This document shows, piece after piece, positions 1,499 through 37,716 of a stretch of DNA of 64,000 nucleotides. Position 1 is the stretch's first letter; each line of letters starts with the position of its first letter. Both the position numbers and the translations under genes were made by a program. Source of the DNA: Acidimicrobiales bacterium. Its GTDB lineage: Bacteria > Actinomycetota > Acidimicrobiia > Acidimicrobiales > SHLQ01. The notes under the pieces are model-generated. The model did not search any database and was not told the origin of the DNA. It was given only the letters and a program-made list of their open reading frames with translations. Location: NCBI GenBank assembly GCA_965216815.1, contig OZ244202.1, positions 1,297,762 to 1,361,761 of the forward strand. The letters are read 5' to 3'.

Positions 1499-1501
1499 GC
1501 T

Positions 1502-1975
1502 GTGCTCGGGCAGTACCTGCCGGTACTCGGGCTACTCATTCTGGCGGTGATCTTCGGTGTCGGAGGCTACGCGACCGCTGGTCTGCTCGCGCCCCGAAGC
1601 CCAAACGACAAGAAGGCGGCGCCATATGAATGTGGCATCATCCCGGCAAAGGAGACGCCCGAGCGGTTTCCGGTAACGTTCTTCCTCGTCGCGATGATCT
1701 TCATCGTGTTCGACGTCGAGATCATCTTCCTCTATCCCTGGGCGGTCGCCAACGGCTCGCTCGGCGTGTTTGGATTGGTCGCGGTGCTGCTGTTCTCGTT
1801 TCTCGTCTTCGAGTCGTTCGTGTACCTCATCAGCAACGGCGCGCTCGAATGGGGTCCCATATCGAAGGCGCGCCGGCTCCGCACGCCGATGGTGTCGGCA
1901 GACCGCACGGCTTCGACCACTATCCGTCGCGTAGGCCTCGAGGGTCGCAAACCGGCCGATGGCGAGGCCGCCTGA
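1502..1975 (+). CDS. nuoA: NADH-quinone oxidoreductase subunit A
   Basis: NuoA signature YECG..P...PERFPV.FFLVAM.F.VFDVE..FLYPWA. First gene of the nuoA-N order. Confidence 0.9.
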
Positions 1976-2549
1976 GATGGGATTCGACGACGTGCGCGAG
2001 CACGGCCTCGAAGGACTCGACCACAACTTCCTGACCGGCAAGCTCGAGGACCTCGTCAAGTGGAGCCGCACGCGCAGTTGCTGGCCGGCGACGTTCGGGT
2101 TGGCGTGTTGTGCGATCGAGATGATGGCGACCGGCGGCGCACACTACGACCTCGCTCGATACGGCATGGAGGTCTTTCGCGCCTCGCCACGCCAGGCCGA
2201 CCTGATGATCGTTGCAGGCCGGGTCTCCCAGAAGATGGCGCCGGTGCTGCGTCAGGTCTATGACCAGATGGTCGAACCCAAGTGGGTCATCTCGATGGGG
2301 GTCTGCGCATCGAGCGGCGGCATGTTCAACAACTATGCGATCGTCCAGGGCGTCGACCAGGTCGTACCCGTCGACGTCTATGCGCCAGGGTGCCCGCCCG
2401 GTCCCGAGACCCTCATGCACGCGATTCTGACGCTGCACGACCAGATCGAATCGGGCGAGCTGACACGGCGCCGTGAGGAGAACACCCCGACGGTCGTCGA
2501 GCAGCGAGACGGCCAGACCGCCGCAGGCGCGACGCTCGGGAGCCGGTGA
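1959..2549 (+). CDS. nuoB: NADH-quinone oxidoreductase subunit B
   Basis: [20 protein letters not shown] and PGCPP (N2 cluster ligands). Alternative start ATG 1977. Confidence 0.92.
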
Positions 2550-3082
2550 GCGTGAGCGACTCCGCCGACGAGGCGACGCCCGAGGACGACGCGCCCGACA
2601 CCGAGGTCGCCGCCGAATCGCCGCGCAGCTACGGCGCTGTTCATGTCCCCGACGACCCGACCGTCCTGTTCCCGACGCTCGACGAGTACGCGGCGACGGT
2701 CGAGGCACTGCGTGACGACGGGTTCCGCATGGTTATCGACCTCACCGCAGTCGACTACCTCACCCATCCGGGTCGTGCGCTTCCGCCAACGGTCGAAGCG
2801 GCAAGGTTCGAGGTCGTCGCGAGCCTCATCGATCACGCCCACCGCCGGCGGGTACGGATCAGACTGCAGGTCGCGGAGGGCGATGTCGTCCCGAGCCTGT
2901 TCGACCTCTTCCCCGGCACCGAGGCGATGGAACGCGAAGTGTTCGACATGTTCGGCATCGCGTTCAGCGACCACCCCGACCTCACCCGCATCCTCATGCC
3001 CGAGGACTGGAACGGTCACCCGCTGCGCAAGGACTACGCCATCGGTGAGATCCCGGTGCAGTTCAAGGCGGTCGGGAAGTGA
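2546..3082 (+). CDS. nuoC: NADH-quinone oxidoreductase subunit C
   Basis: [35 protein letters not shown] overlap with nuoB stop. Confidence 0.9.
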
Positions 3083-4401
3083 CGGCGCCGATGGTCGACG
3101 CCGAGGAGCACGGCGCCGCCGAGACCGCCGATCGCGTTCGCCTGCGCGAGGGATCTGCGGTGTTGCGGATGTCCGAATCGGAGATGGCTGCGGGCGGGTT
3201 CGCCGACGAGGAGGAACACGACGATCACGCGCTCGGCGAGGAGACCATGTTGATGAACATGGGTCCCTCCCATCCGTCCACACACGGTGTGTTGCGCCTC
3301 ATGCTCGAGATGCGCGGCGAGACGATCCTCAGGTCGAAGCCGGTCATCGGCTACCTGCACACCGGCATGGAGAAGACCGGCGAGGAGCTCACCTACCTCC
3401 AGGGAGCCACAAACGTCACCCGCATGGACTACGCGTCGCCGCTGTTCAGCGAGCTTGCGTTCTCGCTGGCGGTCGAACAACTGCTCGAACTCGAGATACC
3501 CGAACGTGCGACGTGGATCCGCATGCTCATGTCCGAGCTTAACCGCATGTCGTCGCACCTGTTGTTCATGGCCACCAACGGCATGGATCTCGGAGCCGTG
3601 TCGATGATGCTCTACGGGTGGCGCGAGCGCGAAGAGGTGCTGCGCTTCTTCGAGATGACCAGCGGCCTGCGGATGAACCACAACTACATTCGGCCCGGCG
3701 GCGTCGCGGCCGATCTGCCCGACGGGTGGCAGGGCGAGGTGCAGCGCCTGTTGGACCTCATCGAGCCCCGCATGGCGGAGTACGACACCCTCATGACTGG
3801 GCAGCCGATATGGCGCGATCGGCTCCAGGGGGTCGGTGTGCTCAACGCCGAGGAGGCGCTGGCACTCTCGACGACCGGGCCGCTGCTACGCTCCACCGGC
3901 TATGCGTGGGATCTTCGTCGCGACATGCCGTACCTCGCGTACGACCAGGTCGAATTCGACGTAATCGTCGGAACCTACGGCGACAGCTTCGACCGTTACG
4001 CGATTCGGCTCAACGAGATCCGCGAGTCGATGCGCATCATCTCCCAGATCCTCGACCGCATGCCGAGCGGCGACTACCGGGTGCAGGACAAGAAGGTCAC
4101 GCCCCCGCCACGTGGCCGCATCGACGAGTCGATGGAGGCCCTCATCCATCATTTCAAGATCTTCACCGAGGGCTTCAAGGTCCCGGTCGGCGAGTCCTAC
4201 GCCGCCGTCGAGTCGCCTCGCGGCGAGCTCGGCTGCTACATCGTGTCCGACGGCACGTCGAAGCCGTATCGCCTGCGCGTCCGTCCCCCGAGCTTCATCA
4301 ACCTCCAGACCCTGCCCCACCTTCTCGCCGACGGAGTGGTCGCCGACGCCGTCGCCGTTATCAGCAGCGTCGACCCGATCATGGGAGAGGTCGACCGATG
4401 A
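3079..4401 (+). CDS. nuoD: NADH-quinone oxidoreductase subunit D
   Basis: NMGPSHPSTHGVLRL, GYLHTGMEK, TRMDY and C-terminal DPIMGEVDR. About 55 aa acidic N-terminal extension. Confidence 0.93.
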   Translation: MTAPMVDAEEHGAAETADRVRLREGSAVLRMSESEMAAGGFADEEEHDDHALGEETMLMNMGPSHPSTHGVLRLMLEMRGETILRSKPVIGYLHTGMEKTGEELTYLQGATNVTRMDYASPLFSELAFSLAVEQLLELEIPERATWIRMLMSELNRMSSHLLFMATNGMDLGAVSMMLYGWREREEVLRFFEMTSGLRMNHNYIRPGGVAADLPDGWQGEVQRLLDLIEPRMAEYDTLMTGQPIWRDRLQGVGVLNAEEALALSTTGPLLRSTGYAWDLRRDMPYLAYDQVEFDVIVGTYGDSFDRYAIRLNEIRESMRIISQILDRMPSGDYRVQDKKVTPPPRGRIDESMEALIHHFKIFTEGFKVPVGESYAAVESPRGELGCYIVSDGTSKPYRLRVRPPSFINLQTLPHLLADGVVADAVAVISSVDPIMGEVDR

Positions 4402-5027: not shown

Positions 5028-5034
5028 ACCGACG

Positions 5035-6441: not shown

Positions 6442-6473
6442 GTAGGACACGGGGACAGACCCCCTGTCCTACT
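6441..6473. repeat. 33-nt near-palindromic element (copy 1), nuoF/nuoG spacer
   Basis: agtaggacacggggacagaccccctgtcctact. 9-bp outer and 4-bp inner stem. It starts on the last base of the nuoF TGA. Confidence 0.65.
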
Positions 6474-6487
6474 CGGACGGCCGCGTC

Positions 6488-10143: not shown

Positions 10144-10145
10144 TC

Positions 10146-11748: not shown

Positions 11749-11752
11749 GCTG

Positions 11753-18459: not shown

Positions 18460-18879
18460 TTGCCCCTGCGCCGTATTGGCGACCCCTATGCCCCATCGTT
18501 AGGCTCTCACGCCGTGTCGGACTTCCTCCGCAGCTACCTCACAGTCTTCATCTTCGCCGGATTCGCCGTCGTTCTCGTCGGCGTCATCTTGTCGTTGGGG
18601 CGGCTCATCCGACCCGATCGGGCTACCGCGCAGAAGTACATCACCTACGAGAGCGGCGTCGACCCCACCGGCGACATGTGGTCTCAGTCGAACATTCGCT
18701 ACTACGTCTTTGCGCTGCTCTTCGTCATGTTCGACGTCGAAGCCGTGTTCATCTTCCCATGGGCCACCCGCCTCGAGGCCTACGGCCTCTTCGGGCTGAT
18801 CGAGATGGGCATCTTCATCGTCATTCTGCTGCTCGGGCTCATCTATGCGTGGCGCAAGGGGATGCTGCGATGGGTCTAG
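18460..18879 (+). CDS. nuoA: complex-I-like subunit A (second copy)
   Basis: YESG.DP.G......IRYY.FALLFV.FDVEAVF.FPWA. A likelier start is GTG 18514. Confidence 0.85.
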
Positions 18880-19373
18880 TCGAGAACGGCAAGCTGCCGA
18901 AACCGCTCACCAGCCTGCTCAACATCTCGCGCAAGTACTCGCTGTGGGTCTATCAGTGGGGGCTCGCCTGCTGCGCGATCGAGATGGGTGCCGCTTTCGT
19001 CGCACCCCGCTACGACGTGATGCGTCTCGGTGTGATCCCGCTGCCCGCGAGTCCTCGCCAAGCCGACCTGGTGGTCATCTCGGGCACCGTCACCGACAAG
19101 ATGGCGCCTGCGGTGCGTCGCCTCTACGAGCAGATGCCCGACCCGAAGTACGTCATCTCCATGGGTTCGTGTGCCAACTGCGGCGGCCCCTACTGGGACA
19201 GCTACTCGGTCACCAAGGGCGTTGACCAGGTCATTCCCGTCGACGTCTACGTGCCGGGGTGCCCGCCTCGACCCGAGGCTCTCCTCGAAGGCATCGTGAT
19301 GCTCCAGGAGAAGATCCTCAACGAGGATCCTGCCGAGCGATGGAAGGGAGAGCCCCTTGTCGTCGACGGCTGA
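18870..19373 (+). CDS. nuoB: complex-I-like subunit B (second copy)
   Basis: Internal ATG of track ORF 18405-19373. [23 protein letters not shown] and VPGCPPRPE. Confidence 0.9.
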
Positions 19374-20040
19374 AGCCACCGAATCAGACGAAGCCTCAGA
19401 AGACGTCGTCGAGACCGACGAGGCTCGCGAGGCTCTCGTCGAGCGCATCGGCGCCGAGCTGGGCGACGCCTTGCTCGATAGTCACATAGTCCCCGGAAAG
19501 GACGCCTGGATACGCGTCACCCGCGACAGCTGGGTCGACACAGGCATGTTCCTACGCGACGGCATCGGTTGTCGCTACTTCAACTTCCTCTCGGTGATCG
19601 ACTGGCTGCCGTCGCCGTACGGCCGCGAGATGGAGGCCGAGGTCGACCTCGATCCGGACGCTGAAAATGAACCTGAGCCGATCGAGCAAGGGTTTGCCGG
19701 CGGCGATACCCGCTTCCAGATCTTCGCCAGGGTGCACAACGTGGTCGATCACCTCGGCATCACGATCAAGACCGACCTCGACGACGACAACCCCGCGATC
19801 GACACCTGGATCCCGGTGTATGCCGGGGCGAACTGGCACGAACGCGAGGCCTGGGAGATGTACGGCGTCGATTTCGTGGGCCACCCGAACCTGGTCCACC
19901 TCTACCTGCCGACGGGGTTCGAAGGACACCCGCTGCGCAAGGACTTCCCGCTGCTGGCACGGCGTATGAAGCCGTGGCCGGGCATCGTCGATGTCGAGCA
20001 GATGCCGGGCGAGGATGACGACGAGGAGGCGGCATCGTGA
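19357..20040 (+). CDS. nuoC: complex-I-like subunit C (second copy)
   Basis: [39 protein letters not shown] start with GGAAGGGAG upstream. Confidence 0.85.
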
Positions 20041-21206
20041 GCGTCACCGAGTCCGAGCAACTCTCCTACATCGCGGCCCAGGCCGCCGATGCCCGACTGA
20101 ACGTGGAGATCGAGACCGAGGGCATGACCCTCAACATCGGCCCCCAGCATCCGGCAACACACGGCACGCTGCGCATCGTCGCCAAACTCGATGGCGAACA
20201 GGTGCTGGCCGCCGAACCGATCGCCGGGTACATGCACCGTGGCTACGAGAAGCTGACCGAGGTACGCACGTACCCGCAGGTGACCACGCTCATCAACCGC
20301 ATCGACTGGTTGGGCAGTTTCGCAAACGAGGTCCCGTTCATTCTCGCCGCAGAACAGCTCATGGAGGTCGAGGCGCCACCACGAGCTCAGTGGATCCGGA
20401 CCGTCCTGTTCGAGCTGTCCCGCATCTCGAACCTCACCTTGTTCCTCGGCGACATGGGCATCCAACTCGGTGCGATGACCCCGGTGTTCTACGCATTCCG
20501 AGACCGCGAGCACGTGGTCAACCAGATCGAGGCAGTTACCGGCGGCAGGTTCCATCCGAACTTCGACCGGATCGGTGGGCTCAAGGACGATCTCCCGGCC
20601 GGCTGGATCGACGGTACTCGGAGCGCGATGGATCGCATCGAGGACTTCTGCGACCAGATGGAGACGCTCCTGCTGGGCAACGAGATCTTCGAGAGCCGGA
20701 CACGCGGTATCGGTGTCATCCCGGCCGACGTGGGACTCGCCTACGGCCTCTCCGGAGCCAACATTCGTGCCAGTGGCGTCGACTGGGATCTGCGCCGAGA
20801 CGGCAGCGAGGGCCTGGTCTACAACGAGCTCGACTGGAAGGTCTGGACCCATCCCGACGGCGACTCCTTCGCCCGGTTCTGGGTGCGGCTCCAGGAGATC
20901 CGCGAGGGCGCCAAGATCGTCAGGCAGCTCCTCGACGGCATCCCGTCCGGACCGGTCATGGCCAAGGTGCCGCGCATCATCAAAGTGCCGGCAGGTGAAG
21001 CATTCGTCGAGACCGACAACCCGCTCGGCGCGATGGGCTACTACGTCGTGTCCAAAGGCGACCTCAACCCGTTCCGTGTGAAGATCCGCTCGGCATCGTT
21101 CAACAACATCTCGATCTGTCCGTGGGTGCTCAGGGGCGTCTACGTGCCCGACATCATCACGATCCTCGCCAGCCTGTACTTCATCTTGGGGGACATCGAC
21201 CGGTGA
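20037..21206 (+). CDS. nuoD: complex-I-like subunit D (second copy)
   Basis: NIGPQHPATHGTLRI, GYMHRGYEKL and C-terminal FILGDIDR. GTGA overlap with nuoC2. Confidence 0.92.
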   Translation: MSVTESEQLSYIAAQAADARLNVEIETEGMTLNIGPQHPATHGTLRIVAKLDGEQVLAAEPIAGYMHRGYEKLTEVRTYPQVTTLINRIDWLGSFANEVPFILAAEQLMEVEAPPRAQWIRTVLFELSRISNLTLFLGDMGIQLGAMTPVFYAFRDREHVVNQIEAVTGGRFHPNFDRIGGLKDDLPAGWIDGTRSAMDRIEDFCDQMETLLLGNEIFESRTRGIGVIPADVGLAYGLSGANIRASGVDWDLRRDGSEGLVYNELDWKVWTHPDGDSFARFWVRLQEIREGAKIVRQLLDGIPSGPVMAKVPRIIKVPAGEAFVETDNPLGAMGYYVVSKGDLNPFRVKIRSASFNNISICPWVLRGVYVPDIITILASLYFILGDIDR

Positions 21207-22231
21207 GCGTTCTCGCAGAGCTGTCTTACTGGCAGCAGACCTCCATCCGGGTCGTCGCCGGGCTCGCCGCGGTGCTCATCCCCGCGGGCACGCTCGTCTA
21301 CCTGTTCCTGTTCAAGATGATGAGCTTCATGCAGAGCCGACTCGGCCCCATGGAAGCTGGCCCATTCGGCTCGATGCAGCTCTTCGCCGAGGTCGGCAAG
21401 TGGCTCCAGAAGGAAGACATCTTCCCATCGCGCGCCGATCGCTGGGTGTTCGCCGGCGCGCCTTTCGTCGTGTTGATGAGCACGTTCCTTCTCGTGCTCG
21501 TCCTGCCGTTCGGTCCCGACGCGTGGTTCGTCAACCTTCCGACCGGCATCTACTTTGCGCTCGCCGTCGGATCGGTTTCGGTCATCGGCGTGCTGATGGC
21601 GGGCTGGGCGTCGGCCAACAAGTACTCGCTGCTCGGAGGCTTGCGCGCCGCGGGCCAGCTGATCGCATACGAGCTGCCCATGGTGCTCGCCGTTGTCGGC
21701 GTCGTCATCCAGGCAGGCACGCTCAACATGCAAGGCATCGTCCTCGCTCAGGCCGACGGCGAGATCTTCGGATGGGGTGCGATCGGAAACCCCTTCATCC
21801 TCACGCAGTTCATCGGTTTCGCAATATTCCTCATAGCCGTACAGGCCGAATTGACCCAAACGCCCTTCGACATGCCGATCGCCGAGTCAGAGCTCGTCAG
21901 CGGCTACTTGACCGAGTACTCGGGCATGCGGTTCCTGTTGTTCTTCATCGGCGAGTATGCGACCGCCGGTGTGTTCTCGGCGATCGTGGCGGTGTTGTTC
22001 CTCGGCGGCTGGTACATCCCGGGCATCGACATCGACGACAACATCTTCAACGTGATCGGACCGATCGTGATGATGGTCAAGATCGTGCTCGTCAGCTTCG
22101 TCATCTTCTGGTTCCGTTTCACGATGCCGCGCTTCCGTGAGGACCAACTCCAGAAGCTCGCCTGGAAGGTCCTGATCCCGTTGTCGCTCGCGAACATCGC
22201 AGCGACCGCCGTGTTGAAGGTGGCGTTCTAG
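21203..22231 (+). CDS. nuoH: complex-I-like subunit H (second copy)
   Basis: GTGA overlap directly with the nuoD2 stop. AEL.QTPFDMPIAESELVSGY.TEYSGMRF. Confidence 0.9.
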   Translation: MSVLAELSYWQQTSIRVVAGLAAVLIPAGTLVYLFLFKMMSFMQSRLGPMEAGPFGSMQLFAEVGKWLQKEDIFPSRADRWVFAGAPFVVLMSTFLLVLVLPFGPDAWFVNLPTGIYFALAVGSVSVIGVLMAGWASANKYSLLGGLRAAGQLIAYELPMVLAVVGVVIQAGTLNMQGIVLAQADGEIFGWGAIGNPFILTQFIGFAIFLIAVQAELTQTPFDMPIAESELVSGYLTEYSGMRFLLFFIGEYATAGVFSAIVAVLFLGGWYIPGIDIDDNIFNVIGPIVMMVKIVLVSFVIFWFRFTMPRFREDQLQKLAWKVLIPLSLANIAATAVLKVAF

Positions 22232-22768
22232 ATGCCGAAGATCCCCGGAGTCATCAAGGGTCTGGGCGTGACGCTCAAGACGTTCACCGAGACGGTCTTT
22301 CCCGACGGCTTGCGCAAGCCGATCCCGCAACCGTCCAAGGGCGCGGTGACAGTTCAGTACCCGCGCGAGAAGGAAGCGCCGCCCGATCGCGCACGCGGTG
22401 TCATCGCCCTTCACGAAGAGAACTGCACGGCGTGCATGCTGTGCGCGCGCGAATGCCCCGATTGGTGCATCTACATCGAGGGTCACAAGACCAAGGCCCC
22501 GCCGCGGCGCGCGGGTGGCAAGCCCCGTCAGGTCAACGCTCTCGATCGGTTCGACATCGACTACGCCCTGTGCATGTACTGCGGCATCTGCGTCGAGGTC
22601 TGCCCGTTCGAGGCGCTGTTCTGGAGCCCGGAGTACGAGTTCTCCGAGGCGAAGATCGCCGACCTGCTCCACGACAAGGATCGCCTCGGCGAGTGGATGC
22701 ACACCGTGCCCGAGTTCGAACCCTATGAGGCGGGCTCGGAGGCCAAGGTGAAGAAGGTGCCGCGATGA
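22232..22768 (+). CDS. nuoI: complex-I-like subunit I (second copy)
   Basis: [12 protein letters not shown] and [18 protein letters not shown] junction. Confidence 0.9.
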
Positions 22769-23310
22769 CTCTCGCAGCCTTCCTCGCTCAGTCCGAAGGC
22801 GGTGACCTCGTCGTCGCGCAGAACATCGCCTTCGGCATCATCGCCGCAACCATGCTGTTCTGCGCCTGGAGGGTGGTGACGACCAGCAATGTCGTTCACG
22901 CCGCCCTCTACCTCGTGATAGTCCTCGCCGGGGTCGCGGCCAACTTCATACTGCTCGGCGCCGAATTCGTCGGCGTCACCCAGGTCCTCGTCTACATCGG
23001 CGCTGTAGTCGTGCTGTTCCTGTTCGGCATCATGTTGACACGCGCGAAGCTGGGCGACGACGAGTCCGTCGACCACGAAAACCGACTCATGGCGGCGCTC
23101 ACCGGCCTGTTGTTGTTCGTCGTCATGGGCTACGCACTCATCGACACCTACGACGACACCCGCGTAGACCTCGAGTCGCCCTCGACGACCGAACAGGTCA
23201 GCGATTCGATATTCGCCGACTACCTGATTCCTTTCGAGGCCGTGTCGGTGTTGCTGCTCGCTGCGCTGATCGGTGCCATCGTGATCGCAAGGAGAGAAGA
23301 TGGTTCTTAA
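22765..23310 (+). CDS. nuoJ: complex-I-like subunit J (second copy)
   Basis: Position and NuoJ-like helices ([19 protein letters not shown]). ATGA overlap. Confidence 0.85.
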
Positions 23311-23599
23311 CCAATTCCTCCTGCTGGCAGCCGCTCTGTTCTGCCTCGGCGTCTACGGCGTGCTCGCCCGCCGCAACGGCGTGATGGTGCTGATGTCGAT
23401 CGAGCTGATCCTCAACGCGGTCAACATCAATCTCGTCGCTTTCGCTGCGTTCACCAATTCCATCGCCGGCGAGGTGTTCGCCCTCTTTGTGATCGCCATC
23501 GCAGCAGCCGAGGTTGGCGTCGGACTGGCGATAGTCCTGTTGATCTACCGCAACCGCAAGAGCATCGACCTCACCGAGGCCGATCTCCTGAAGGGCTGA
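23300..23599 (+). CDS. nuoK: complex-I-like subunit K (second copy)
   Basis: [12 protein letters not shown] and [12 protein letters not shown]. Confidence 0.9.
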
Positions 23600-23601
23600 G
23601 C

Positions 23602-25899
23602 GTGACGATGATGAACGCCCTTCTTCTCGCTGCCGAGGCCGGTTCTTCGGTTACGACCGCCGGTGGCTTCTTCCTGCGCAACGCCTGGATCATCCCGGTC
23701 CTGCCGTTCGCTTCGTTCGTTCTGATCCTCTTCTTTGGCAAGCGCATGCCCAAAGGTGGCTCTGAAATCGGCGTCGCCGCAGTCGGGTTGGCGTTCGTGC
23801 TCGCGTTGTTGGTCGGAGTTCAGTGGATCGATCACCGGGACAACTACGAGGGGACAGCCCACGCCGCCGAGGCCGACCATGGCGAGGGTGAAGAAGCCGC
23901 CGCCGAGGCCGACCACGGCGAGGGTGAAGAAGCCGCCGCCGAAGGCGGCGAGCATGGAGCCGAAGAGGGCGGCCACGAGGCGGCGCATCCGAGTGTCGCC
24001 GTCGGCAACAACGTCGACTGGCTCCAGAGCGGCGGCGAGGTCTTCTCGGTCGGGTTCCTCGTCGACGGGCTCGCAGCGATGATGCTCTTCGTCGTCACGC
24101 TGATCTCGTTGCTCGTGCACGTCTACTCGACCGACTACGTGTCGGGCGATCGGCGGTACACGCACTTCTTCGCGTTCCTCTCCTTGTTCACCGCCGCCAT
24201 GCTGTTTCTGGTCATCGCCGAGAACACGCTGCAACTCATCGTCGCCTGGGAGCTAGTCGGTGTGTGCTCGTTCGCCCTCATCGGCCACTGGTGGGAGGAA
24301 AAGCCCAACAGTGACGCAGCTCTCAAAGCCTTTCTCACCAACCGCGTCGGCGATATCGGCCTGTTGGTCGGTGTCAGCGTGCTGTTCTTCGCCGCTGGCG
24401 GCACCTTCAACATCGTCGAGATCAACACGCTCGCGAACGAGGGTCTCATTTCGCACACGGCGCTGCTGGTCGCGTCGTTGTGCCTGCTCGCCGCCGTCAT
24501 GTCGAAGTCGGGTCAGTTCGTGCTGCACACCTGGTTGCCCGACGCCATGGCCGGTCCGACCCCGGTGTCGGCGCTAATACACGCAGCGACGATGGTCGTC
24601 GCCGGCGTCTACATGGTCGCCCGTCTCTACGGCGTGTTCTGGGAAGGGTTCTCGATCGGAGGATCGAGCATCAACCCGTTGTCCTTGGTCGGAGCGGTCA
24701 CGCTGTTCTTCGGTGGTCTCCTCGCGTTCGTGCAGCGCGACATCAAGAAAGTCTTGGCGTACTCCACCGTTTCCCAGCTCGGCTACATGGTCATGGCGCT
24801 CGGAGTCGGCGCATGGACCGCCGCGGTGTTCCACCTGTTCACCCACGCCTTCTTCAAGGCGGGCCTGTTCCTCGGTTCGGGCTCGGTATCCCACGCGGTC
24901 CACAGCTTCGACATGAAGTCCGACATGGGCGGTCTGCGCAAGTACATGCCCAAGACCTTCGCCACCTTCATGATCTGTTCTGTCGCCCTCATGGGCCTGC
25001 CGCCGCTGGCCGGTTTCTGGTCCAAAGACGAGATCCTCGCCGGCACCGGTGGATGGGGACTCTTCGGTGGCACCGGCGGCAACGGTTCGTACACGCTCAT
25101 GCTGGTCATGGGCATGGCGGGCGCAGCGCTCACCGCCGCGTACATGACCCGCGCCATCTACCTCACGTTCTTCGGCGAGTTCCGCGGTCATGGTGAGCCT
25201 CACGAGTCCGGTCCTCGCATCACCGTGCCGCTCATGATCCTCAGCTTCTTCGCCATCACAGCGGGCTGGCTCAACCTGCCGAAGGGATTCCAGCTCGTGC
25301 CCGAGAGCTGGACCGAGAGGTTCGGCCATTTCGTCGAACCGGTCGCTGCGTATTTCCCGTCCGAGGAGATCGGATTTGGCCACGCTACGCCTAGCTGGAC
25401 GCTGGCGATCGTGTCGACGCTGATCGCGCTCGGTGGTCTCGCGGTGGCCTACGTGTACTACTTCGTCATGGTCGACCGACGCTCGAAGGCGGTCGACGAG
25501 TCGCTCACCGAGCTGCCAAACGGTCCGACCTCGGTTCCCGGACCCGCCGCGGCCGGCTACACGGTCCTGGCGAACAAGTACTACCTCGATCACCTCTATA
25601 CCGACATCATCGCCGGAGGCACCAAGGGACCGGTCGCCGACGGTGTCAACTGGGTCAACAAGCACGTGCTCGACGGTGTGGTCGACGGGGCGGCAACCTC
25701 AGCGGTCAAGGCCGGCAACTTCGTTTACAACACCGTCGATCAGGAGATCGTCGACGGGGTCGTAAACGCCTCGGGTTCCGCATCCAACCTGGGCGGCGAT
25801 CAGCTCCGCAAAGTGCAGAACGGCCGGGTGCAGCGCTATGCGGCCATCTTGTTCCTGGGCGCTGCGGCGCTCGCCGGTGTGTTCATCGTTCTTTTGTAG
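23602..25899 (+). CDS. nuoL: complex-I-like subunit L (second copy) with His/Glu-rich insert
   Basis: WELVGVCSF.LIGHWW and KSGQF.LHTWLPDAMAGPTPVSALIHAATMV. 765 aa against 665 aa for copy 1. Start could also be ATG 23608 or 23611. Confidence 0.9.
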   Translation: MTMMNALLLAAEAGSSVTTAGGFFLRNAWIIPVLPFASFVLILFFGKRMPKGGSEIGVAAVGLAFVLALLVGVQWIDHRDNYEGTAHAAEADHGEGEEAAAEADHGEGEEAAAEGGEHGAEEGGHEAAHPSVAVGNNVDWLQSGGEVFSVGFLVDGLAAMMLFVVTLISLLVHVYSTDYVSGDRRYTHFFAFLSLFTAAMLFLVIAENTLQLIVAWELVGVCSFALIGHWWEEKPNSDAALKAFLTNRVGDIGLLVGVSVLFFAAGGTFNIVEINTLANEGLISHTALLVASLCLLAAVMSKSGQFVLHTWLPDAMAGPTPVSALIHAATMVVAGVYMVARLYGVFWEGFSIGGSSINPLSLVGAVTLFFGGLLAFVQRDIKKVLAYSTVSQLGYMVMALGVGAWTAAVFHLFTHAFFKAGLFLGSGSVSHAVHSFDMKSDMGGLRKYMPKTFATFMICSVALMGLPPLAGFWSKDEILAGTGGWGLFGGTGGNGSYTLMLVMGMAGAALTAAYMTRAIYLTFFGEFRGHGEPHESGPRITVPLMILSFFAITAGWLNLPKGFQLVPESWTERFGHFVEPVAAYFPSEEIGFGHATPSWTLAIVSTLIALGGLAVAYVYYFVMVDRRSKAVDESLTELPNGPTSVPGPAAAGYTVLANKYYLDHLYTDIIAGGTKGPVADGVNWVNKHVLDGVVDGAATSAVKAGNFVYNTVDQEIVDGVVNASGSASNLGGDQLRKVQNGRVQRYAAILFLGAAALAGVFIVLL

Positions 25900-25914
25900 T
25901 CACGAGGATTCGAC

Positions 25915-27540
25915 ATGGAAACGTTTGACGATTGGTCACTGACACTGGTGACATTCCTGCCGTTGGTCGCGGCGCTGGTCATGATGGCCATCCCCAAGAC
26001 ATCCGAGGAGACGCACAAGCTCCTGGCGCTGGGTACGTCGGTGGCGGTCGCCGTGCTCGGGGTCATCATCCTCGTCCGCTTCGACTTCGACCTCTCCGGT
26101 GAGCTCCAGTTCGTCGCCGACGAGACCTGGATCGAGATCATTAACAGCCGCTACATCGTCGGCCTCGACGGGATCTCGCTGCCGCTGGTGTTGCTGACGA
26201 TGCTCGTGGTGCCGTTGTGCATCGTCTACAGCTGGAATCACTTCCCCGAGCCGCACAATCCGAAGGCGTTCCTGATCCTCATCCTCATTCTCGAGACGGG
26301 GATGATCGGCACGTTCGTCGCCCAGGACCTGATTCTGTTCTTCGTGTTCTTCGAGGTTGTGCTGTTGCCGATGTTCTTCATGATCGCGGTCTGGGGTGGT
26401 CCCGAGCGCAAGTACGCGTCGCTCAAGTTCTTCCTGTTCACGTTGTTCGGCTCGGCGCTGATGATCCTGTCGTTTCTCGCCCTGTTCTTCCTCGCCGAGG
26501 ACGCGGCCGGCGATGCGCTGCGTACGTTCGACATGCGCGAGCTGACCGAGTGGGGCGGAGCGGGTCTGGCGCGCACGACCGGGCTGTTGATCTTCGGAGG
26601 CATGTTCATGGGGTTCGGCATCAAGGTGCCGATGTTCCCGTTCCACACCTGGTTGCCCGACGCTCACACCCAAGCACCCACGGTGGGCTCGGTGATCCTG
26701 GCCGCTGTGCTGCTGAAGCTCGGCACCTACGGGTTCGTTCGGATCGCCATCCCGATATTGCCCGAACCGGCGGTCGAGTGGGCGCCGTGGATCGGCGCGC
26801 TGGCCGTCGTAGGCATCATCTATGGCGCGCTCGGATGCCTCGCACAAACCGACATGAAACGACTCATCGCGTTCTCGTCGGTGGCCCACATGGGCTTCGT
26901 CATGCTCGGCATCGCCACGCTCACCGACTTCGGCATCAATGCTGCGATCTTCGGCATGGTCGCTCACGGTCTCATCACCGGCATGCTGTTCTTCCTGGCG
27001 GGGTCGGTGAAGGAGCGGTACCACACGCTCGAGATCAAGCGGCTCGGCGGTCTGCTCGTGCAGGCGCCGCGGATGGGCTGGATCCTCGGGTTCTGTGCGA
27101 TGGCTTCGCTCGGCCTGCCCGGTCTCGCCGGGTTCTGGGGTGAGTTCCCCGCAATCCTGGCTTCGTACAACCCGGCCAATGGCGTGCCGGTAGAGACCTT
27201 CCGCACCTACATGGTCATAGCTGCGCTCGGCACGGTACTCGCCGCCGGATACCTTCTGTGGCTTCTACAGCGGACCGCGTTCGGGACGCCGTCGGACGAG
27301 TTCGCTGAGGATCCCGCCATCACGGACACGACGCCGACCGAGTGGGTCGCTTGGGCGCCTTTGCTCGCACTCATCGTCGTACTCGGCATCTACCCGAACC
27401 TGCTGTTCAAGACCACCGACGACGCGGTCGTGAATTCCCTCGACGAGTGCCTGCAGGTCGACGAGTCTGACGCAGCTGACCTCGGTTGCGGCGAGGTCTA
27501 CGATTTGGGCACCGTCGAGGTCGCGGCGGAAGGCGGCTGA
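25915..27540 (+). CDS. nuoM: complex-I-like subunit M (second copy)
   Basis: FGIKVPMFPFHTWLPDAHTQAPTVGSVILAAVLLKLGTYG. Confidence 0.9.
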   Translation: METFDDWSLTLVTFLPLVAALVMMAIPKTSEETHKLLALGTSVAVAVLGVIILVRFDFDLSGELQFVADETWIEIINSRYIVGLDGISLPLVLLTMLVVPLCIVYSWNHFPEPHNPKAFLILILILETGMIGTFVAQDLILFFVFFEVVLLPMFFMIAVWGGPERKYASLKFFLFTLFGSALMILSFLALFFLAEDAAGDALRTFDMRELTEWGGAGLARTTGLLIFGGMFMGFGIKVPMFPFHTWLPDAHTQAPTVGSVILAAVLLKLGTYGFVRIAIPILPEPAVEWAPWIGALAVVGIIYGALGCLAQTDMKRLIAFSSVAHMGFVMLGIATLTDFGINAAIFGMVAHGLITGMLFFLAGSVKERYHTLEIKRLGGLLVQAPRMGWILGFCAMASLGLPGLAGFWGEFPAILASYNPANGVPVETFRTYMVIAALGTVLAAGYLLWLLQRTAFGTPSDEFAEDPAITDTTPTEWVAWAPLLALIVVLGIYPNLLFKTTDDAVVNSLDECLQVDESDAADLGCGEVYDLGTVEVAAEGG

Positions 27541-27541
27541 G

Positions 27542-29044
27542 GTGATCGCCCAGGTGCTGGCCCAGGCGTTCGAGTCGCCGAACCTCGACTATCACGCGCT
27601 CGCACCCGAGATCGTGTTGGTCAGCTTTGCCGCGGTGTTGATTCTGCTCGACGTCGTCCTGCTCGAGAAGGCCAGGCCGTTCATTTCCGCGCTGGCGGGA
27701 ATCGGTCTGTTGGCGACAATGGTGCCGATCCTAACTCTCGCCATCGACGGCACCGATCGCGTGCTGTTCGGCGGCGCCTACGTGGTCGACGATTTCGCGC
27801 TCGTCATGAAGGCGCTCTTCGTGCTGAGCGGTTACGTCGTCGTGTTGTTGTCGACCAACTACATCGCCGAGGGCGACTACTGGGAGAACGAGTTCTACGG
27901 CCTGCTACTCGCGTCGATCGGCGGCATGGTCGTCATGGCTTCGTCGCGCGACCTGATCACGATCTTCGTTGCTCTCGAGTTGTTGTCCATCCCCGCCTAC
28001 ATCATGGCGACGTGGCGCAAACGCGACCTGCGCAGCAACGAGGCCGGCCTGAAGTACTACCTGATGGGCGTCTTCGCATCGTCGATCATGCTCTACGGAA
28101 TGTCGCTGCTCTACGGCGCGAGCGGTTCGACACTTCTGACAGGGATCAATGAGGCGGTGAGCAATGCCGCCGACAGTCCGACCACGGTCACGTTGGCGGT
28201 GATCTTCGTCATCGTCGGGTTCGCCTTCAAGGTCTCCGCGGTTCCATTCCACTACTGGGCGCCCGACACCTACGAGGGAGCTCCGACCCCGGTCACGGCA
28301 TATCTCGCTGTCGCGTCGAAAGCTGCGGGATTCGTCGCTCTGCTCCAGCTCGTGTTCGTCGGCTTCTACGGTCGCGACGACGTCTATGAGCCGGTCATCT
28401 GGATCCTTGCAGCGGCATCGATGACGATCGGCAACCTGTTGGCGCTGCGCCAGGACAACATCGTGCGCATGATGGCCTACTCGGGCGTCGCCCAGGCCGG
28501 CTTCATGATCGCCCCTCTGGCTGTCGCTTCTGAGACCGGCGACAGCGCGGTGACGACCACGGTCACCTACCTCCTGATCTATGCCGCGATGAACCTCGGC
28601 GCGTTCGCCGTGATCATCGCCCTCGCCCGCAAGACCGGCTCGGCGCAGCTCGACTCATACGACGGCGCCTTCCACTACGCCCCGGCGCTGACCGTCGCCA
28701 TGACGATCTTTCTCTTCAGCCTCGCGGGCATCCCACCGCTCGGCGGGTGGTTCGCGAAATTCGCTGTCATGAGCACCCTCATCGACGCGAACAACGCGTC
28801 CGGTGTTGTTCTCGCGATCGTTGTCGCCGTCAACTCGGTCATCGCCCTCTACTACTACGGCAGCGTCGCCCGCCGCATGTGGGTCGAGGACGCGCCCGAC
28901 GGCGACCTTTCGCCCGTGCAGGTCCCCGTTTCGCTCATCGCCGCCCTCGGCATCACCGCTGCCCTGACTCTGTTGTTCGGCGTGTTCCCACAGGCGGTCA
29001 CCGAGATCTCCGAGGTCGGGTTGCTCTCGGCGATGGGTGGGTGA
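27542..29044 (+). CDS. nuoN: complex-I-like subunit N (second copy)
   Basis: FAFKVSAVPFHYWAPDTYEGAPTPVTAY. Confidence 0.9.
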   Translation: MIAQVLAQAFESPNLDYHALAPEIVLVSFAAVLILLDVVLLEKARPFISALAGIGLLATMVPILTLAIDGTDRVLFGGAYVVDDFALVMKALFVLSGYVVVLLSTNYIAEGDYWENEFYGLLLASIGGMVVMASSRDLITIFVALELLSIPAYIMATWRKRDLRSNEAGLKYYLMGVFASSIMLYGMSLLYGASGSTLLTGINEAVSNAADSPTTVTLAVIFVIVGFAFKVSAVPFHYWAPDTYEGAPTPVTAYLAVASKAAGFVALLQLVFVGFYGRDDVYEPVIWILAAASMTIGNLLALRQDNIVRMMAYSGVAQAGFMIAPLAVASETGDSAVTTTVTYLLIYAAMNLGAFAVIIALARKTGSAQLDSYDGAFHYAPALTVAMTIFLFSLAGIPPLGGWFAKFAVMSTLIDANNASGVVLAIVVAVNSVIALYYYGSVARRMWVEDAPDGDLSPVQVPVSLIAALGITAALTLLFGVFPQAVTEISEVGLLSAMGG

Positions 29045-30012
29045 GCGGTCTCTCCTCCCGCCTGATCGAGCGCGTTGAGCAAGAGGGGCCGATTCGCTTC
29101 TCGGACTACATGACCACGGCGCTCTACGACCCGGACGTTGGGTTCTACTCGGTCGATGGTCGGGCCGGTCGACGGGGCGACTTCATCACCAGTCCCGAGG
29201 TGGGACCGCTCTTCGGCGCGCTGATCGGCCGCTGGATCGATGGTCGCTGGGAGGCGGTCGGCAGACCCGATCGCTTCACTGTGGCTGAAGTCGGAGCCGG
29301 GCCCGGCACGCTTGCCCGATCGGTGCTGGAATCGGTCCCGTCGTGTTCGGATGCTCTCAGCTACGTCGCTGTCGAGACGTCGGCCACCCAGCGGAGGCTG
29401 CACCCCGAATCGGTCGTGTCTGTGACAGAACTCCCGGCTGGCGCGATCGACGTCGTCCTCGCGAACGAACTGCTCGACAACCTGCCGTTCGACATCACCG
29501 ACGGATCACAGGACATGCTGGTCGGAGTCGACGGCGACCGCTTCGTGGAAGTCTGGCCGGATGGCGTTCCCGATCGTCGGTATCCACGCCAGGATGCCGC
29601 GCGCCGATTCGTCGAGGTCGCGATGCGTCGGGTCGGCGCGGGAGCCGTGCTGGTCATCGACTACATGCGCTCAGGCCACGCGGCGTTCGACGATGCCGAT
29701 TGGCTCCGGACGTACCGGGGTCACGAACGGGGCGGCGACCCGCTCGTAGACCCTGGGGAGTGGGACGTCACCGCCGACGTGGCGCTCGAACCGCTCATCG
29801 CCGGGTTGCGAACGCCTCGGATATCGACGCAGGCCGAGTTTCTCGCGGACCTGGGCATCGACGAGCTGGTTGCGGAGGGCAGAGCGGCGTGGGAGGCCGG
29901 CGCTGCACGCGGTGATCTAGCTGCGCTGAAGGGTCGTAGCCGCGTGCGCGAGGCCGAGGCGCTGACCGACCCAGCCGGCCTCGGCGGCTTCACCGTGTTG
30001 GAGTGGGGCTGA
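29041..30012 (+). CDS. MidA/NDUFAF7-family (DUF185) SAM-dependent methyltransferase
   Basis: GTGA overlap with the nuoN2 stop. DFITSPEVGPLFGALIGRW, EVGAGPGTLA, VETSATQRRL, ANELLDNLPF and VIDYM match the MidA/NDUFAF7 pattern recalled from memory. Confidence 0.75.
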   Translation: MSGLSSRLIERVEQEGPIRFSDYMTTALYDPDVGFYSVDGRAGRRGDFITSPEVGPLFGALIGRWIDGRWEAVGRPDRFTVAEVGAGPGTLARSVLESVPSCSDALSYVAVETSATQRRLHPESVVSVTELPAGAIDVVLANELLDNLPFDITDGSQDMLVGVDGDRFVEVWPDGVPDRRYPRQDAARRFVEVAMRRVGAGAVLVIDYMRSGHAAFDDADWLRTYRGHERGGDPLVDPGEWDVTADVALEPLIAGLRTPRISTQAEFLADLGIDELVAEGRAAWEAGAARGDLAALKGRSRVREAEALTDPAGLGGFTVLEWG

Positions 30013-30050
30013 GCGGGCCGGGCGAGGTGTCTGGAGGCCGCGAAACCACC

Positions 30051-30220
30051 GGTGTCAGGAGACCGCGCGGATTACCCCTGCGGGTCCAAACGGCATGGTG
30101 TCAGGCACCCGGCGCAGGACGAACTTGGCCCAGGATTGCAGGGCGCCGGGTGCCTGACACCGTTGCATTGGAACCCCGCGAACCGCAGGTCTTGAGCAAT
30201 CCGCTGAGTCTCCTGACACC
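30051..30220. repeat. 170-bp nested imperfect palindrome (MITE-like or structured element)
   Basis: Outer IR ggtgtcaggagac (30051-30063) / gtctcctgacacc (30208-30220). Inner perfect 19-bp IR 30097-30115 / 30143-30161. The arms are homologous, with indels. Confidence 0.7.
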
Positions 30221-30255
30221 TCTGCGTTGGCGAGTGATTCGACCAACTCGCGGCA

Positions 30256-30570: not shown

Positions 30571-31024
30571 CTACGACCCCAGGCCCACATCGGCGATAGC
30601 TATGAAGCCGTTGTTGAACGCGTCGATGTCCTCGGGGACGTCGGTGACGGTCGAGGTGCAATCGGCGGGCCCGTAGGGTCGTCCGTTGAAGGCGGTGGCT
30701 GTCACGGTCTCGACTGTGCCCCGGATCTCGGATGGTGGCGCACACGTTGGAATGTTGATGTTGGCCACGACCTGGTCCGCCAGCCCGAGACGCCAATCGT
30801 CGAGCCAGTCGAGCGTTGCGTCGACTCCCGACTCATAGTCGGGTTCGACCCCGGTCTGGATGCCTTGACTCGTTGCCACCGCAGGAATGAAGTGTCGCCC
30901 ACCGGTTCGGGCCGCACCGACCGTGCCCGACAGCGCGATGACCGGGCCCCATGTTCTGTCCCTCGTTGATGCCGGACACGACGAGGTCGGGGTTCTCACC
31001 CATCACGTTGATCGCGTGCAGCAC
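30571..31024 (-). pseudogene. surE: surE (5'/3'-nucleotidase) remnant, frameshifted and N-terminally truncated
   Basis: PDLVVSGINEGQNMGP in one frame (30833-31024). It continues as SGTVGAAR...IPAVATS...VANINIP...GFIAIADVG in another frame (30571-30999). The N-terminal NDDG region is absent. Confidence 0.6.
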
Positions 31025-31204
31025 CTAGTCTGCGGGGAATCAGCAGCCGGACGACGACGAGAGCGAGCAAGGTCGCAACCAGTACGAGTCGCCGCCTACG
31101 GATGGTTTCGGATGTGCTGAACATGATCCCCCTCGAAACGCGGAAAGCTATCGAAGTTGCCGTGAGTTGTCGACATGCTGCGTTGCATCTGGCGTCCAGG
31201 GGAG

Positions 31205-32674
31205 TCACGTCCCACAGAACGTTCGGTAGCCGCGGTCGAACTCCTTGGGTGCTGGTCGTTCGTACCGCTCGCCGCCCGGGCGCGGGGAATAGGGGTTGGT
31301 CAGGTGTCGACGAAGCGCCGCGAGCGGCGCCAGATCCCCGTCGGTCGCCGCATCGAGGGCTTCTTCTATGAGGTGGTTGCGAGGGATGTACAGCGGGTTC
31401 ACCCGGTCGATCTCGGCTGCCACATCGTGTCGCTCGGCCTGCTCGTCGCCCACTCGATCGAGCCAACGAGATACCCACCGCTCGGCGTCGCTGCCGGCGA
31501 GCGATGCTGTATCGCCACGCAGTATCTCGCCCAATTTGCGGAAGCTCGAGGTGTAGTCGAGGCGTTGGTCCTGCAGCAGCGCAACGAAATCGTCGCACAG
31601 CGCCGCATCGGCGTTGCCGTCGGAGCGGAGACCGAGCTTGGAGCGCATGCCCCGCAGCCAGTGCTCGCGGTAGCGGTCGGGAAACGACTCCAGAACATCG
31701 ATCGCCGCCGCCTTTGCTTTGTCGACATCGTCGTCGATGAGGGGCAACAGCGTCTCGGCGAGTCGACTCAGGTTCCACAGCGAAATGCGTGGCTGATTGC
31801 CGTACGCATAGCGTCCCGCATGGTCGATCGAGCTGTAGACGGTGCTCGGGTCGTAGCGGTCCATGAACGCGCACGGGCCGTAGTCGATTCCTTCGCCCGA
31901 GATCGTCGTGTTGTCGGTGTTCATCACGCCGTGGATGAAGCCCAGGAGCATCCAGTGAGCCACGAGCTCCGCCTGGACCTCGACCACCGATTCGAGCAGT
32001 GCGAGGTTTGGGCTCGGCGAGCCCGCGGCTGCGGGGTGGTGGCGGGCGATCGCATGGTCGGCGAGGCGCCGGAGGACGTCTTGGTCGCCGAGGCGTGCCG
32101 CGTACTCGAAGGTGCCGACGCGCAGGTGGCTCGCAGCAACGCGCACGAGCAAAGCGCCGGGGACCGCACCATCTCGCATGATGTCCTCGCCGGTCGTGAG
32201 CACCGCCAGGGCACGGGTGGTCGGAACTCCGAGTGCGTGGAGCGCTTCGGCTATGAGGAACTCGCGCAGCATCGGGCCGAGCGCAGCCTTGCCGTCGCCG
32301 CCGCGGGCGAACGGGGTGCGTCCCGAGCCCTTGAGGTGGACGTCGCGTCGGGTTCCTCCGTCGTCGAGGACCTCACCGATCAGCAGCGCTCGCCCATCGC
32401 CGAGGCGAGGTGAGTACCCACCGAATTGGTGTCCCGCGTAGGCCATGGCGACTGGCGTGATCCCGGTCGAGGCCGTGTCGCCCGTGAGCAGGGCGAGGGC
32501 ATTGCTCGACTCGAGTTCTTCCGGTTGAATGCCGAGATCGCAGGCGACTCGGTCGTCGACGACGACGATGCGTGGGTCGGCGGGTCGATCGGCCTCCCAC
32601 TCGACGCACAGCTCCGGCAACTCGCGGGCGAAGGTGTTGTCGAAGTCGAACACCGGAACTCGCACCGTCGCCAT
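31205..32674 (-). CDS. selO: protein adenylyltransferase SelO/YdiU (UPF0061)
   Basis: FDNTFARELP, AMAYAGHQFGGYSPRLGDGRALLIGEV, HLKGSG.TPF.R.GDG.A, and REFL..EA.HALG.PTTRAL. Confidence 0.9.
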   Translation of the reverse strand: MATVRVPVFDFDNTFARELPELCVEWEADRPADPRIVVVDDRVACDLGIQPEELESSNALALLTGDTASTGITPVAMAYAGHQFGGYSPRLGDGRALLIGEVLDDGGTRRDVHLKGSGRTPFARGGDGKAALGPMLREFLIAEALHALGVPTTRALAVLTTGEDIMRDGAVPGALLVRVAASHLRVGTFEYAARLGDQDVLRRLADHAIARHHPAAAGSPSPNLALLESVVEVQAELVAHWMLLGFIHGVMNTDNTTISGEGIDYGPCAFMDRYDPSTVYSSIDHAGRYAYGNQPRISLWNLSRLAETLLPLIDDDVDKAKAAAIDVLESFPDRYREHWLRGMRSKLGLRSDGNADAALCDDFVALLQDQRLDYTSSFRKLGEILRGDTASLAGSDAERWVSRWLDRVGDEQAERHDVAAEIDRVNPLYIPRNHLIEEALDAATDGDLAPLAALRRHLTNPYSPRPGGERYERPAPKEFDRGYRTFCGT

Positions 32675-32714
32675 GTGGTCTCCGACGATACCGGCCCGGC
32701 GGTTCGGAAGAGCG

Positions 32715-33587
32715 TCAGATGTCGACCGTCGGGGTGATCACACGTTCGCCGAACTCCGCGAGCGCTTTCTCGGGGTCAGCGAGGAACATGAACGCGGGCA
32801 CGGCGATCCGGTCGATTCCTCTCGCTCGCGCCTCCTCGGCACCGGCGACCGGGTCGTCGCCGTAGATGCCGGCCGCGTCGCCGCTCGTCACCTCGATCTC
32901 GTCGGGGTCTCGACCATGGCGCTCGGCTGACTCGCGCATGGTGACCAGTAGGTCGTCGAGCGATCCTGCGCCGGGGAAGAAGCCGTCGCCGAGTCGACCC
33001 GCACGCCTCGCCGCTGCGTGGGAGTGTCCGCCGACGACTATCGGGATCGACCCTTGGGCGGGCTTCGGGTTGCTCGACACGTTCTCGAAGTCGACGAACT
33101 CGCCGTGATAGTCGACGTTGTCTTCCGACCACAGGGCGCGCATTGCGGCGACGTAGTCGTCGGTTCGGGCGCCGCGTCGCTCCCATGGGATTCCCAAAGC
33201 GTGGAATTCCTCTTCTAGCCACCCGACCCCGATGCCGAGCTCGAGACGGCCGCCGGTGAACGAATCGATGGTGCCGAGGACCTTTGCGAGCACCAGAGGG
33301 TTGCGTTCGGGGAGGATGAGGATGCCGGTGGCGAGGCGGATCGTCTCGGTAGCGGCTCCCAGCCAGGTCAGCCATACGAGCGGATCGGGTAGGGGTGTGT
33401 CGGGCGTCATCGGCATCTTGCCGCTGGCGTCGTATGGGTAGGTCGACTCGTAGGACTCGGGGTAGATGACGTGTTCGACCGTCCACACCGACTCGAACCG
33501 CGCTGCTTCCGCAGCCCGACCGAGCTGTACAGCGCCTTCACCGGATGAGAACTGCATCGTGTTCGCAAAGGCGATTCCGTACTTCAT
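32715..33587 (-). CDS. luciferase-like (LLM class, probably F420-dependent) oxidoreductase
   Basis: FESVWTVEH, ILILPERNP...AK...TID..SGGRLELGIGVGW..EEF and IPIVVGGHS pattern. Confidence 0.8.
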   Translation of the reverse strand: MKYGIAFANTMQFSSGEGAVQLGRAAEAARFESVWTVEHVIYPESYESTYPYDASGKMPMTPDTPLPDPLVWLTWLGAATETIRLATGILILPERNPLVLAKVLGTIDSFTGGRLELGIGVGWLEEEFHALGIPWERRGARTDDYVAAMRALWSEDNVDYHGEFVDFENVSSNPKPAQGSIPIVVGGHSHAAARRAGRLGDGFFPGAGSLDDLLVTMRESAERHGRDPDEIEVTSGDAAGIYGDDPVAGAEEARARGIDRIAVPAFMFLADPEKALAEFGERVITPTVDI

Positions 33588-33608
33588 GCCATCGACCTCC
33601 GTCGGGCT

Positions 33609-33730
33609 CTGGGATTTCTGAACCTTCCGGTGCGGTATATGACTCCGCAGGGTTCAGAAAACACGAACTGGGGGATTTCTGAACCTTCCGGTGCGGTATA
33701 TGACTCCGCAGGGTTCAGAAAACACGAACT
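33609..33730. repeat. tandem direct repeat, 2 x ~61 bp, each unit an internal palindrome
   Basis: gggatttctgaaccttccggtgcggtatatgactccgcagggttcagaaaacacgaact occurs twice back to back (33611-33669 and 33672-33730), in the divergent LLM/acs intergenic region. Confidence 0.9.
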
Positions 33731-33866
33731 GAACCCTGAAAAGCGTTGGGGGGTTCGGTCTAGTCGACCCCGACGGGTCGAAGCGAACGAATCCGCGGCA
33801 CTAGTGTGCCCGACGGGTCCGTCGCCGGGCCCGCGAGAACTGGGACGAGACCGCAGGGGGAGACCC

Positions 33867-35858: not shown

Positions 35859-35865
35859 GCGCCGT

Positions 35866-35918
35866 CGGAAATTGAGAGGATGAGCACCGGTATGCGCGGC
35901 TGATCCTCTCAATTTCGG
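35866..35918 (+). terminator. hairpin after acs (possible terminator or htpX regulatory site)
   Basis: 14-bp perfect stem gaaattgagaggat (35868-35881) / atcctctcaatttc (35903-35916). No T-tract. Confidence 0.35.
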
Positions 35919-35963
35919 CGCGATAGGCTGGTTTCACGGCGCTTTAGGAGGCGTCGCACAACG

Positions 35964-37670: not shown

Positions 37671-37716
37671 AGTTTCTGGATACCGCGGGGTTAGGTGCCT
37701 GACACCGATCGCCGAG

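Follow-up and report, generated by a model that had tools for sequence, protein, structure and literature searches.

A MidA/NDUFAF7-family methyltransferase gene closes the NuoEFG-less complex I operon of an Acidimicrobiales bacterium and may mature that isoform

In mitochondrial complex I, an arginine of NDUFS2 (the NuoD homologue) located beside iron-sulfur cluster N2 is dimethylated. Carroll et al. described the symmetrically dimethylated residue as Arg-85 in the bovine peptide KCDPHIGLLHRGTEK, and found the modification to be conserved in human, Pichia and Paracoccus denitrificans, on Nqo4 in the latter (PMC3750175). The modifying enzyme is NDUFAF7, which serves complex I assembly. NDUFS2 is methylated before it joins NDUFS7 (PMC12455994, PMC8042128). 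Here, we analysed a 64,000-nt stretch of an Acidimicrobiales genome (contig OZ244202.1, positions 1,297,762 to 1,361,761; hereafter the window), in which a gene of the family of mitochondrial NDUFAF7 and Dictyostelium MidA (midA; 29041..30012, + strand; 323 aa) is the final gene of the second of two tandem nuo operons, both contained in the window. The original prediction had proposed that this putative S-adenosylmethionine (SAM)-dependent methyltransferase acts on the NuoD encoded in the same operon, and had described the dimethylation of NDUFS2 Arg85 in terms that match Carroll et al.

Bacterial complexes differ at this residue. P. denitrificans shows that the same arginine can be methylated in bacteria (PMC3750175). 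The equivalent arginine of Escherichia coli NuoCD is unmodified, indicating that the residue can exist in that state, and Thermus thermophilus has a threonine at that column (PMC3750175); no methyltransferase is linked to the complex I genes of either species. Hameedi et al. described an inter-subunit switch, in which the NuoD threonine of Thermus goes along with an N2-facing arginine provided by NuoB (Nqo6 Arg83), while in Yarrowia NuoD has the arginine and NuoB the threonine (PMC8042128). As for gene order, the closest description is a 2021 preprint by Bulzu et al. on Ca. Actinomarina, which lists a heliorhodopsin, an 11-subunit nuo operon, NDUFAF7 (K18164/PF02636), htpX and pspE, refers to the genes after the nuo operon as accessory components of the complex, and reports a 14-subunit complex nearby (10.1101/2021.02.01.429150). 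The earlier statement that no bacterial case had been described is thus superseded, since NDUFAF7 is listed there directly after the 11-subunit operon. The passages of the preprint available to us do not mention the Arg/Thr logic, the NuoB switch or the breadth of the linkage. We found no further mention of a nuo-midA arrangement in the literature beyond this preprint. Within the searchable papers, a set outside which the 2018 MidA structure paper falls, we found no prior mention of a class-wide linkage, of an isoform logic or of a tie to an altered quinone site.

The operon that ends in midA (nuo2; 18460-29044) encodes 11 subunits in the order A2-B2-C2-D2-H2-I2-J2-K2-L2-M2-N2 and lacks nuoE, nuoF and nuoG, all of which are present in the canonical 14-subunit operon (nuo1; ~1500-16898). 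The NuoEFG-less content of nuo2 also holds in related loci. Positions 29040-29044 read G GTG A, and the GTG start codon of midA at 29041 overlaps the TGA stop codon of nuoN2 (27542..29044, +; PF00361 and TIGR01770 NDH_I_N) in a GTGA (29041..29044, +), just as had been proposed. Similar overlaps are found at other nuo2 junctions (4 nt at C2/D2, 4 nt at I2/J2 and 10 nt at A2/B2). The start of midA lies at or near 29041, because the 20 N-terminal residues are conserved in homologues and modelled as a confident helix, and the overlap suggests that translation of midA may be coupled to that of nuoN2.

The midA product matched the Pfam profile PF02636 (Methyltransf_28) with 83.6 bits (cut-off 23.3; E 2e-23) over profile positions 1-231 of 249, whereas none of the NCBIfam models matched the open reading frame (ORF). 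A sequence search of the PDB retrieved a DUF185 protein of R. palustris (1zkd, 1e-20), Dictyostelium MidA (5ztz, 6e-18) and, as a third solved family member, a COG1565 protein of Burkholderia. The AlphaFold2 model, built with 38 homologues, was confident (predicted local distance difference test, pLDDT, 91.9; predicted template modelling score, pTM, 0.90). Its top Foldseek match was again Dictyostelium MidA (5ztz; E 5e-24, TMq 0.80), with two bacterial COG1565 structures next (4g67, TMq 0.81; 1zkd, TMq 0.76), and the methyltransferase family following these MidA-type folds scored E 5e-8 and TMq 0.39. The window MidA therefore shares both Pfam family and fold with NDUFAF7 and Dictyostelium MidA, to which it is ~23% identical while being 60-100 residues shorter.

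The four motifs on which the MidA/DUF185 assignment had first been based were all found within 29179-29490 on the + strand, namely DFITSPEVGPLFG (29179-29217), EVGAGPGTL (29287-29313), VETS (29371-29382) and ANELLDNLPF (29461-29490). EVGAGPGT represents SAM-binding motif I (acidic-x-G-x-G-x-G), and the product also contains GDFITSPE and ANELLDNLP. We judged the catalytic residues by family-wide conservation, aligning homologues from Acidimicrobiia, Actinomarinales, Sinorhizobium and Paenibacillus and a Bradyrhizobiaceae-like homologue. In this alignment GDFxT(S/A)P, GxGxG and NExxDxxP are invariant, and since the window protein keeps them, its SAM site and family signature are intact. The sole low-confidence stretch of the model (pLDDT < 50) is the loop RGDFIT (residues 45-50; 29173-29190), part of a region in which a GRRGD run starts at residue 43; it opens the invariant DFxTSPE motif and could be a mobile, substrate-gating loop. 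A search of 1.84 billion representatives with the midA product gave 9296 matches at E <= 1e-3 and 248 at E <= 1e-30, which places the window MidA in a compact subclade within a large family. By every membership feature accessible in silico, the ORF is thus a member of the MidA family.

To locate the presumed substrate residue, we aligned NuoD1 (nuoD1, 3079..4401, +) and NuoD2 (nuoD2, 20037..21206, +; PF00346), a short-type NuoD of 389 aa, with human NDUFS2 and with Thermus Nqo4, using an Nqo4 sequence identical to PDB 2fug_4. Arg68 of NuoD2 (CGT 20238-20240), in the sequence GYMHRGYEKL, aligns with the Arg85 column of NDUFS2 (GLLHRGTEKL). The counterpart of the arginine methylated in mitochondria is therefore found, within an HRGxEK motif, in the NuoD of the midA operon, with NuoD2 and its peptide EPIAGYMHRGYEKLTE as candidate MidA substrates. 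NuoD1 has Thr95 (ACC 3361-3363) at this column, in the sequence GYLHTGMEK, which aligns with GYLHTGFEK of Nqo4. Both codons, and the arginine column itself, are as originally predicted.

The NuoB partners show the reciprocal states. NuoB1 (nuoB1, 1959..2549, +) has Arg88 (VAGRVS; CGG 2220-2222) aligned with Thermus Nqo6 Arg83, whose sequence we verified, and goes with the threonine of NuoD1. NuoB2 (nuoB2, 18870..19373, +; PF01058) has Thr73 at the Nqo6 Arg83 position (ISGTVT; ACC 19086-19088), as in the mitochondrial-type NuoB partner, goes with the arginine of NuoD2, and retains all cluster N2 cysteines, including the PGCPP motif. From these reciprocal states it follows that nuo2 has the mitochondrial-type arrangement, the one in which the arginine is methylated. 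The residues of nuo1 are those of the Thermus-type arrangement, for which NuoB1 is predicted to give the N2-facing arginine and there is no substrate at the NuoD1 column.

The pairing of midA with nuo2 is conserved far beyond the window. In a MidA-anchored scan, in which a MidA alignment was run against one genome per GTDB species, we recovered 80 loci, all from Acidimicrobiia. In 76 of the 80 species genomes nuoN2 was found upstream of midA, at a distance of ~200 nt or less in 65 of them; in the other four, the contig extends <= 3.2 kb upstream of midA and gave no nuo hit there, so that these are uninformative. Where the locus reaches nuoD2, the operon has the order B-C-D-H...N without EFG and NuoD2 contains GYMHRGYEK (36/36). 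A NuoN2-anchored scan of metagenome contigs served as a graded sample of nuo operons. Here, midA followed 14 of the 15 NuoN2/NuoD2-type operons that could be assessed (downstream sequence present) and none of the other 59 nuo operons of the sample, canonical or EFG-less.

The linkage also holds at greater divergence. In L101 and the Actinomarinales loci (L161-L164), where the G+C content is 34% compared with 64% and identity to the window proteins falls to 25% for MidA and 54% for NuoD2, the gene order is nuoA-N, midA, htpX, which dates the linkage far back within the class. In Ca. Actinomarina, nuoA-D and nuoH-N are followed by a PF02636 gene, as in the window and in the same class (10.1101/2021.02.01.429150). 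The window comes from another clade, one of high G+C, has no heliorhodopsin upstream and has its htpX-like gene ~6 kb away. Four related high-G+C, nuo2-like operons (L097-L100) have no midA, and in them a gene for a peptidase M48 follows nuoN2 at 270-555 nt. The two that reach the region in question (L097 and L099) read nuoA-B-C-H-I-J-K-L-M-N, with no nuoD between nuoC and nuoH, and upstream of the L099 operon lie nuoN1 and a gene for a polyprenyl synthase. Such nuoD-less operons resemble the nuo2 operon of streptomycetes, for which nuoD2 has been reported elsewhere in the genome (PMC8388888), and for this reason we withdrew our reading of L097 and L099 as a joint loss of substrate and enzyme.

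Outside the class, midA was found in other contexts. In four alpha-proteobacterial loci (three Bradyrhizobiaceae-like contigs and Sinorhizobium, whose MidA homologue is ~31% identical to that of the window) the order is lgt-midA-pgeF, not near nuo. The block is conserved in these bacteria as BMFP/ubiK-lgt-midA-pgeF (L165-L168), the Sinorhizobium record giving the first neighbour as a UbiK accessory factor, and their complex I is the canonical 14-subunit enzyme, unlike nuo2. The midA gene of Paenibacillus is solitary and likewise not near nuo. In the plasmid collection we found no actinobacterial MidA, and only the controls from other phyla were recovered.

The NuoD2 clade linked to midA is also set apart by its quinone site. 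The Tyr87/His38/Asp139 triad of Thermus Nqo4 corresponds to Trp91/His42/Gln143 in NuoD2 (Trp91, 20307-20309; Gln143, 20463-20465; +), so that the canonical site is not preserved, and ~25 residues (Thermus 313-338) are missing. The Tyr87 position is occupied by Trp in 45/45 NuoD2-type proteins and at the Asp139 position 41 of them have Gln, 3 have Glu and 1 has His, while His38 is retained in all 43 assessable proteins; all other NuoD in the sample have Tyr and Asp. The three residues are held to protonate quinone and to trigger pumping (PMC11627005). What midA co-varies with is thus one NuoD2 clade of altered quinone site, rather than the arginine. Given this strict tie to a clade without Tyr and Asp, the nuo2 complex may differ from an ordinary quinone reductase. 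A possible, though doubtful, extension is that nuo2 has a rebuilt quinone site, in which Trp and Gln replace the proton donors Tyr and Asp, and that a methyl-arginine beside N2 is part of the rebuilding.

Taken as a whole, a functional tie of some kind between midA and nuo2 seems highly likely. Because the pairing is conserved across Acidimicrobiia, MidA very probably matures this one complex. The specific reading that we favour, and regard as reasonably probable by analogy with mitochondria, is that midA encodes a co-expressed maturation factor that dimethylates Arg68 of NuoD2 before NuoD2 joins NuoB2. MidA would be translated from the mRNA that also encodes the 11-subunit complex and be dedicated to it, would bind free NuoD2 ahead of docking on NuoB2, as in mitochondria and Paracoccus, and would dimethylate the arginine of the HRGxE motif, a residue expected to pack against cluster N2. 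The canonical complex would not be modifiable at this position, having threonine in NuoD1 and its N2-facing arginine from NuoB1. We infer the enzymatic activity of MidA, its target residue and its role in assembly from the family, the residue states and the genomic context described above.

Several observations weigh against this reading. Arginine is invariant in the 43 assessable NuoD2-type proteins (43/43), and the one canonical operon of the metagenome sample that reaches nuoD has Thr. However, six EFG-less operons without midA all have arginine at the column too (HRG[ILST]EK; HRS in one). The original expectation of a preferential linkage of midA to Arg-bearing NuoD stands, since midA always lies beside an Arg-type NuoD2 and never beside a Thr-type NuoD, but arginine is the commonest state at the column. 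Its presence in these operons and in E. coli, which is not known to have a MidA homologue, means that it is a common state that does not predict a methyltransferase. An arginine is thus a requirement that cannot serve as a diagnostic mark, and it gives no covariation signal. The window protein is 23-28% identical to characterised MidA proteins, and prokaryotic MidA function had been inferred in silico only as of a 2025 paper (PMC12455994). There is also one exception to the linkage itself, a NuoD2-type operon (L082, 11558-18744; GYMHRGYEK, RIDW) with no midA within 7.4 kb downstream, where the genes following nuo encode YhhN, acetyl-CoA synthetase, P450 and lipase.

The first of the alternatives is that MidA serves nuo2 in another way, by modifying another NuoD2 residue or another subunit, or mainly as a binding chaperone in assembly. 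Synteny ties MidA to an operon and not to a target. In addition, the linked NuoD2 clade differs elsewhere (Trp91, Gln143 and the 25-aa deletion), so whatever MidA is specifically needed for could lie in those regions. We consider this unlikely, since the homologous arginine is the only known substrate of the MidA family, and Arg68 is invariant in NuoD2 and precedes a glycine, as at the known site; the intact SAM-binding and family motifs further argue against a purely non-catalytic MidA.

A second alternative is that midA is a housekeeping methyltransferase gene with an unrelated protein or nucleic acid substrate, and that its place after nuoN2 is merely inherited gene order. Every linked case comes from one class and the cases are therefore not independent events, and other MidA clades occur in unrelated contexts. 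In 11 genomes, 0.85-6.3 kb of unrelated genes (by eye, aminotransferase, sulfatase, short-chain dehydrogenase, kinase and similar, with no common theme) lie between nuoN2 and midA, and Wolbachia MidA has preliminarily been reported to methylate DNA in E. coli (PMC12455994). An unrelated role nevertheless appears improbable, as the adjacency persists across MidA identities as low as 25% and G+C contents from 64% down to 34%, overlapping or closely spaced genes are what one transcription unit typically shows, and none of the 59 further nuo operons in the sample is followed by midA. Finally, a decaying remnant might be suspected from the third-position G+C of midA (0.78, compared with 0.86-0.87 in the nuo genes) and from its length (323 aa, compared with 387-432 aa in the crystallised homologues), but the full-length frame with all motifs intact, the confident model and the conservation across hundreds of same-length homologues with 50 invariant columns effectively refute it.

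The remaining nuo2 genes, all on the + strand, are as follows. For nuoA2 (ORF limits 18460..18879; PF00507, E 2e-35) the likely start is GTG 18515, and for nuoH2 (21122..22231; PF00146, E 9e-98) the true start is probably near 21203. Between and after them lie nuoC2 (19357..20040; PF00329), nuoI2 (22232-22768; Fer4 domains), nuoJ2 (22765-23310) and nuoK2 (23300-23599), as well as nuoL2 (23602..25899) and nuoM2 (25915..27540), the last two taken from the ORF list. NuoJ2, NuoK2 and NuoL2 are conserved in related loci, where the NuoM2 homologues are 54-79% identical. The gap between nuo1 and nuo2 holds two minus-strand genes, one (16909-17619) for a class I methyltransferase (Methyltransf_11) and the other (17620-18390) for an APH/choline-kinase-like phosphotransferase.

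Directly after the midA stop codon lies a nested imperfect inverted repeat (30039..30232) with arms at 30039-30073/30198-30232 and 30082-30115/30143-30176. It is centred on the 13-mer GGTGTCAGGCACC, of which a second copy is found at 37694-37706 (- strand), and may be an operon end mark or a genome-specific repeat element. Around the 3' end of midA we found no sigma-70 promoter, intrinsic (T-tract) terminator or Rfam family. Further downstream come an ORF without Pfam hits, genes for SelO (31205-32674, -), a luciferase-like monooxygenase (32715-33587, -) and acetyl-CoA synthetase (33630-35858, +), and then the htpX-like peptidase M48 gene (35964-36833), which directly follows midA in Actinomarinales. 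In the window ~6 kb separate it from midA, and the genes listed here, the peptidase gene included, fall within 30996-36833.

Unlike in mitochondria, then, midA of the window shares an operon with the gene for the presumed substrate of its product, and unlike the mitochondrial complex, nuo2 lacks the NADH module and has Trp and Gln at the quinone site. For dimethyl-Arg85 beside cluster N2, work in mitochondria cannot tell effects of the methyl groups apart from those of the arginine itself, or a part in assembly from one in catalysis (PMC8042128). With enzyme and presumed substrate in one operon, and a second complex I in the same cell that is predicted to be unmodifiable at that position, the organism would offer a simple test of what the modification does. 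Should the more doubtful view with a rebuilt quinone site hold, the MidA-NuoD partnership would be old and extend beyond proteobacteria and mitochondria, and these bacteria would be the first example of a cell with two complex I isoforms, only one of which carries the modification.

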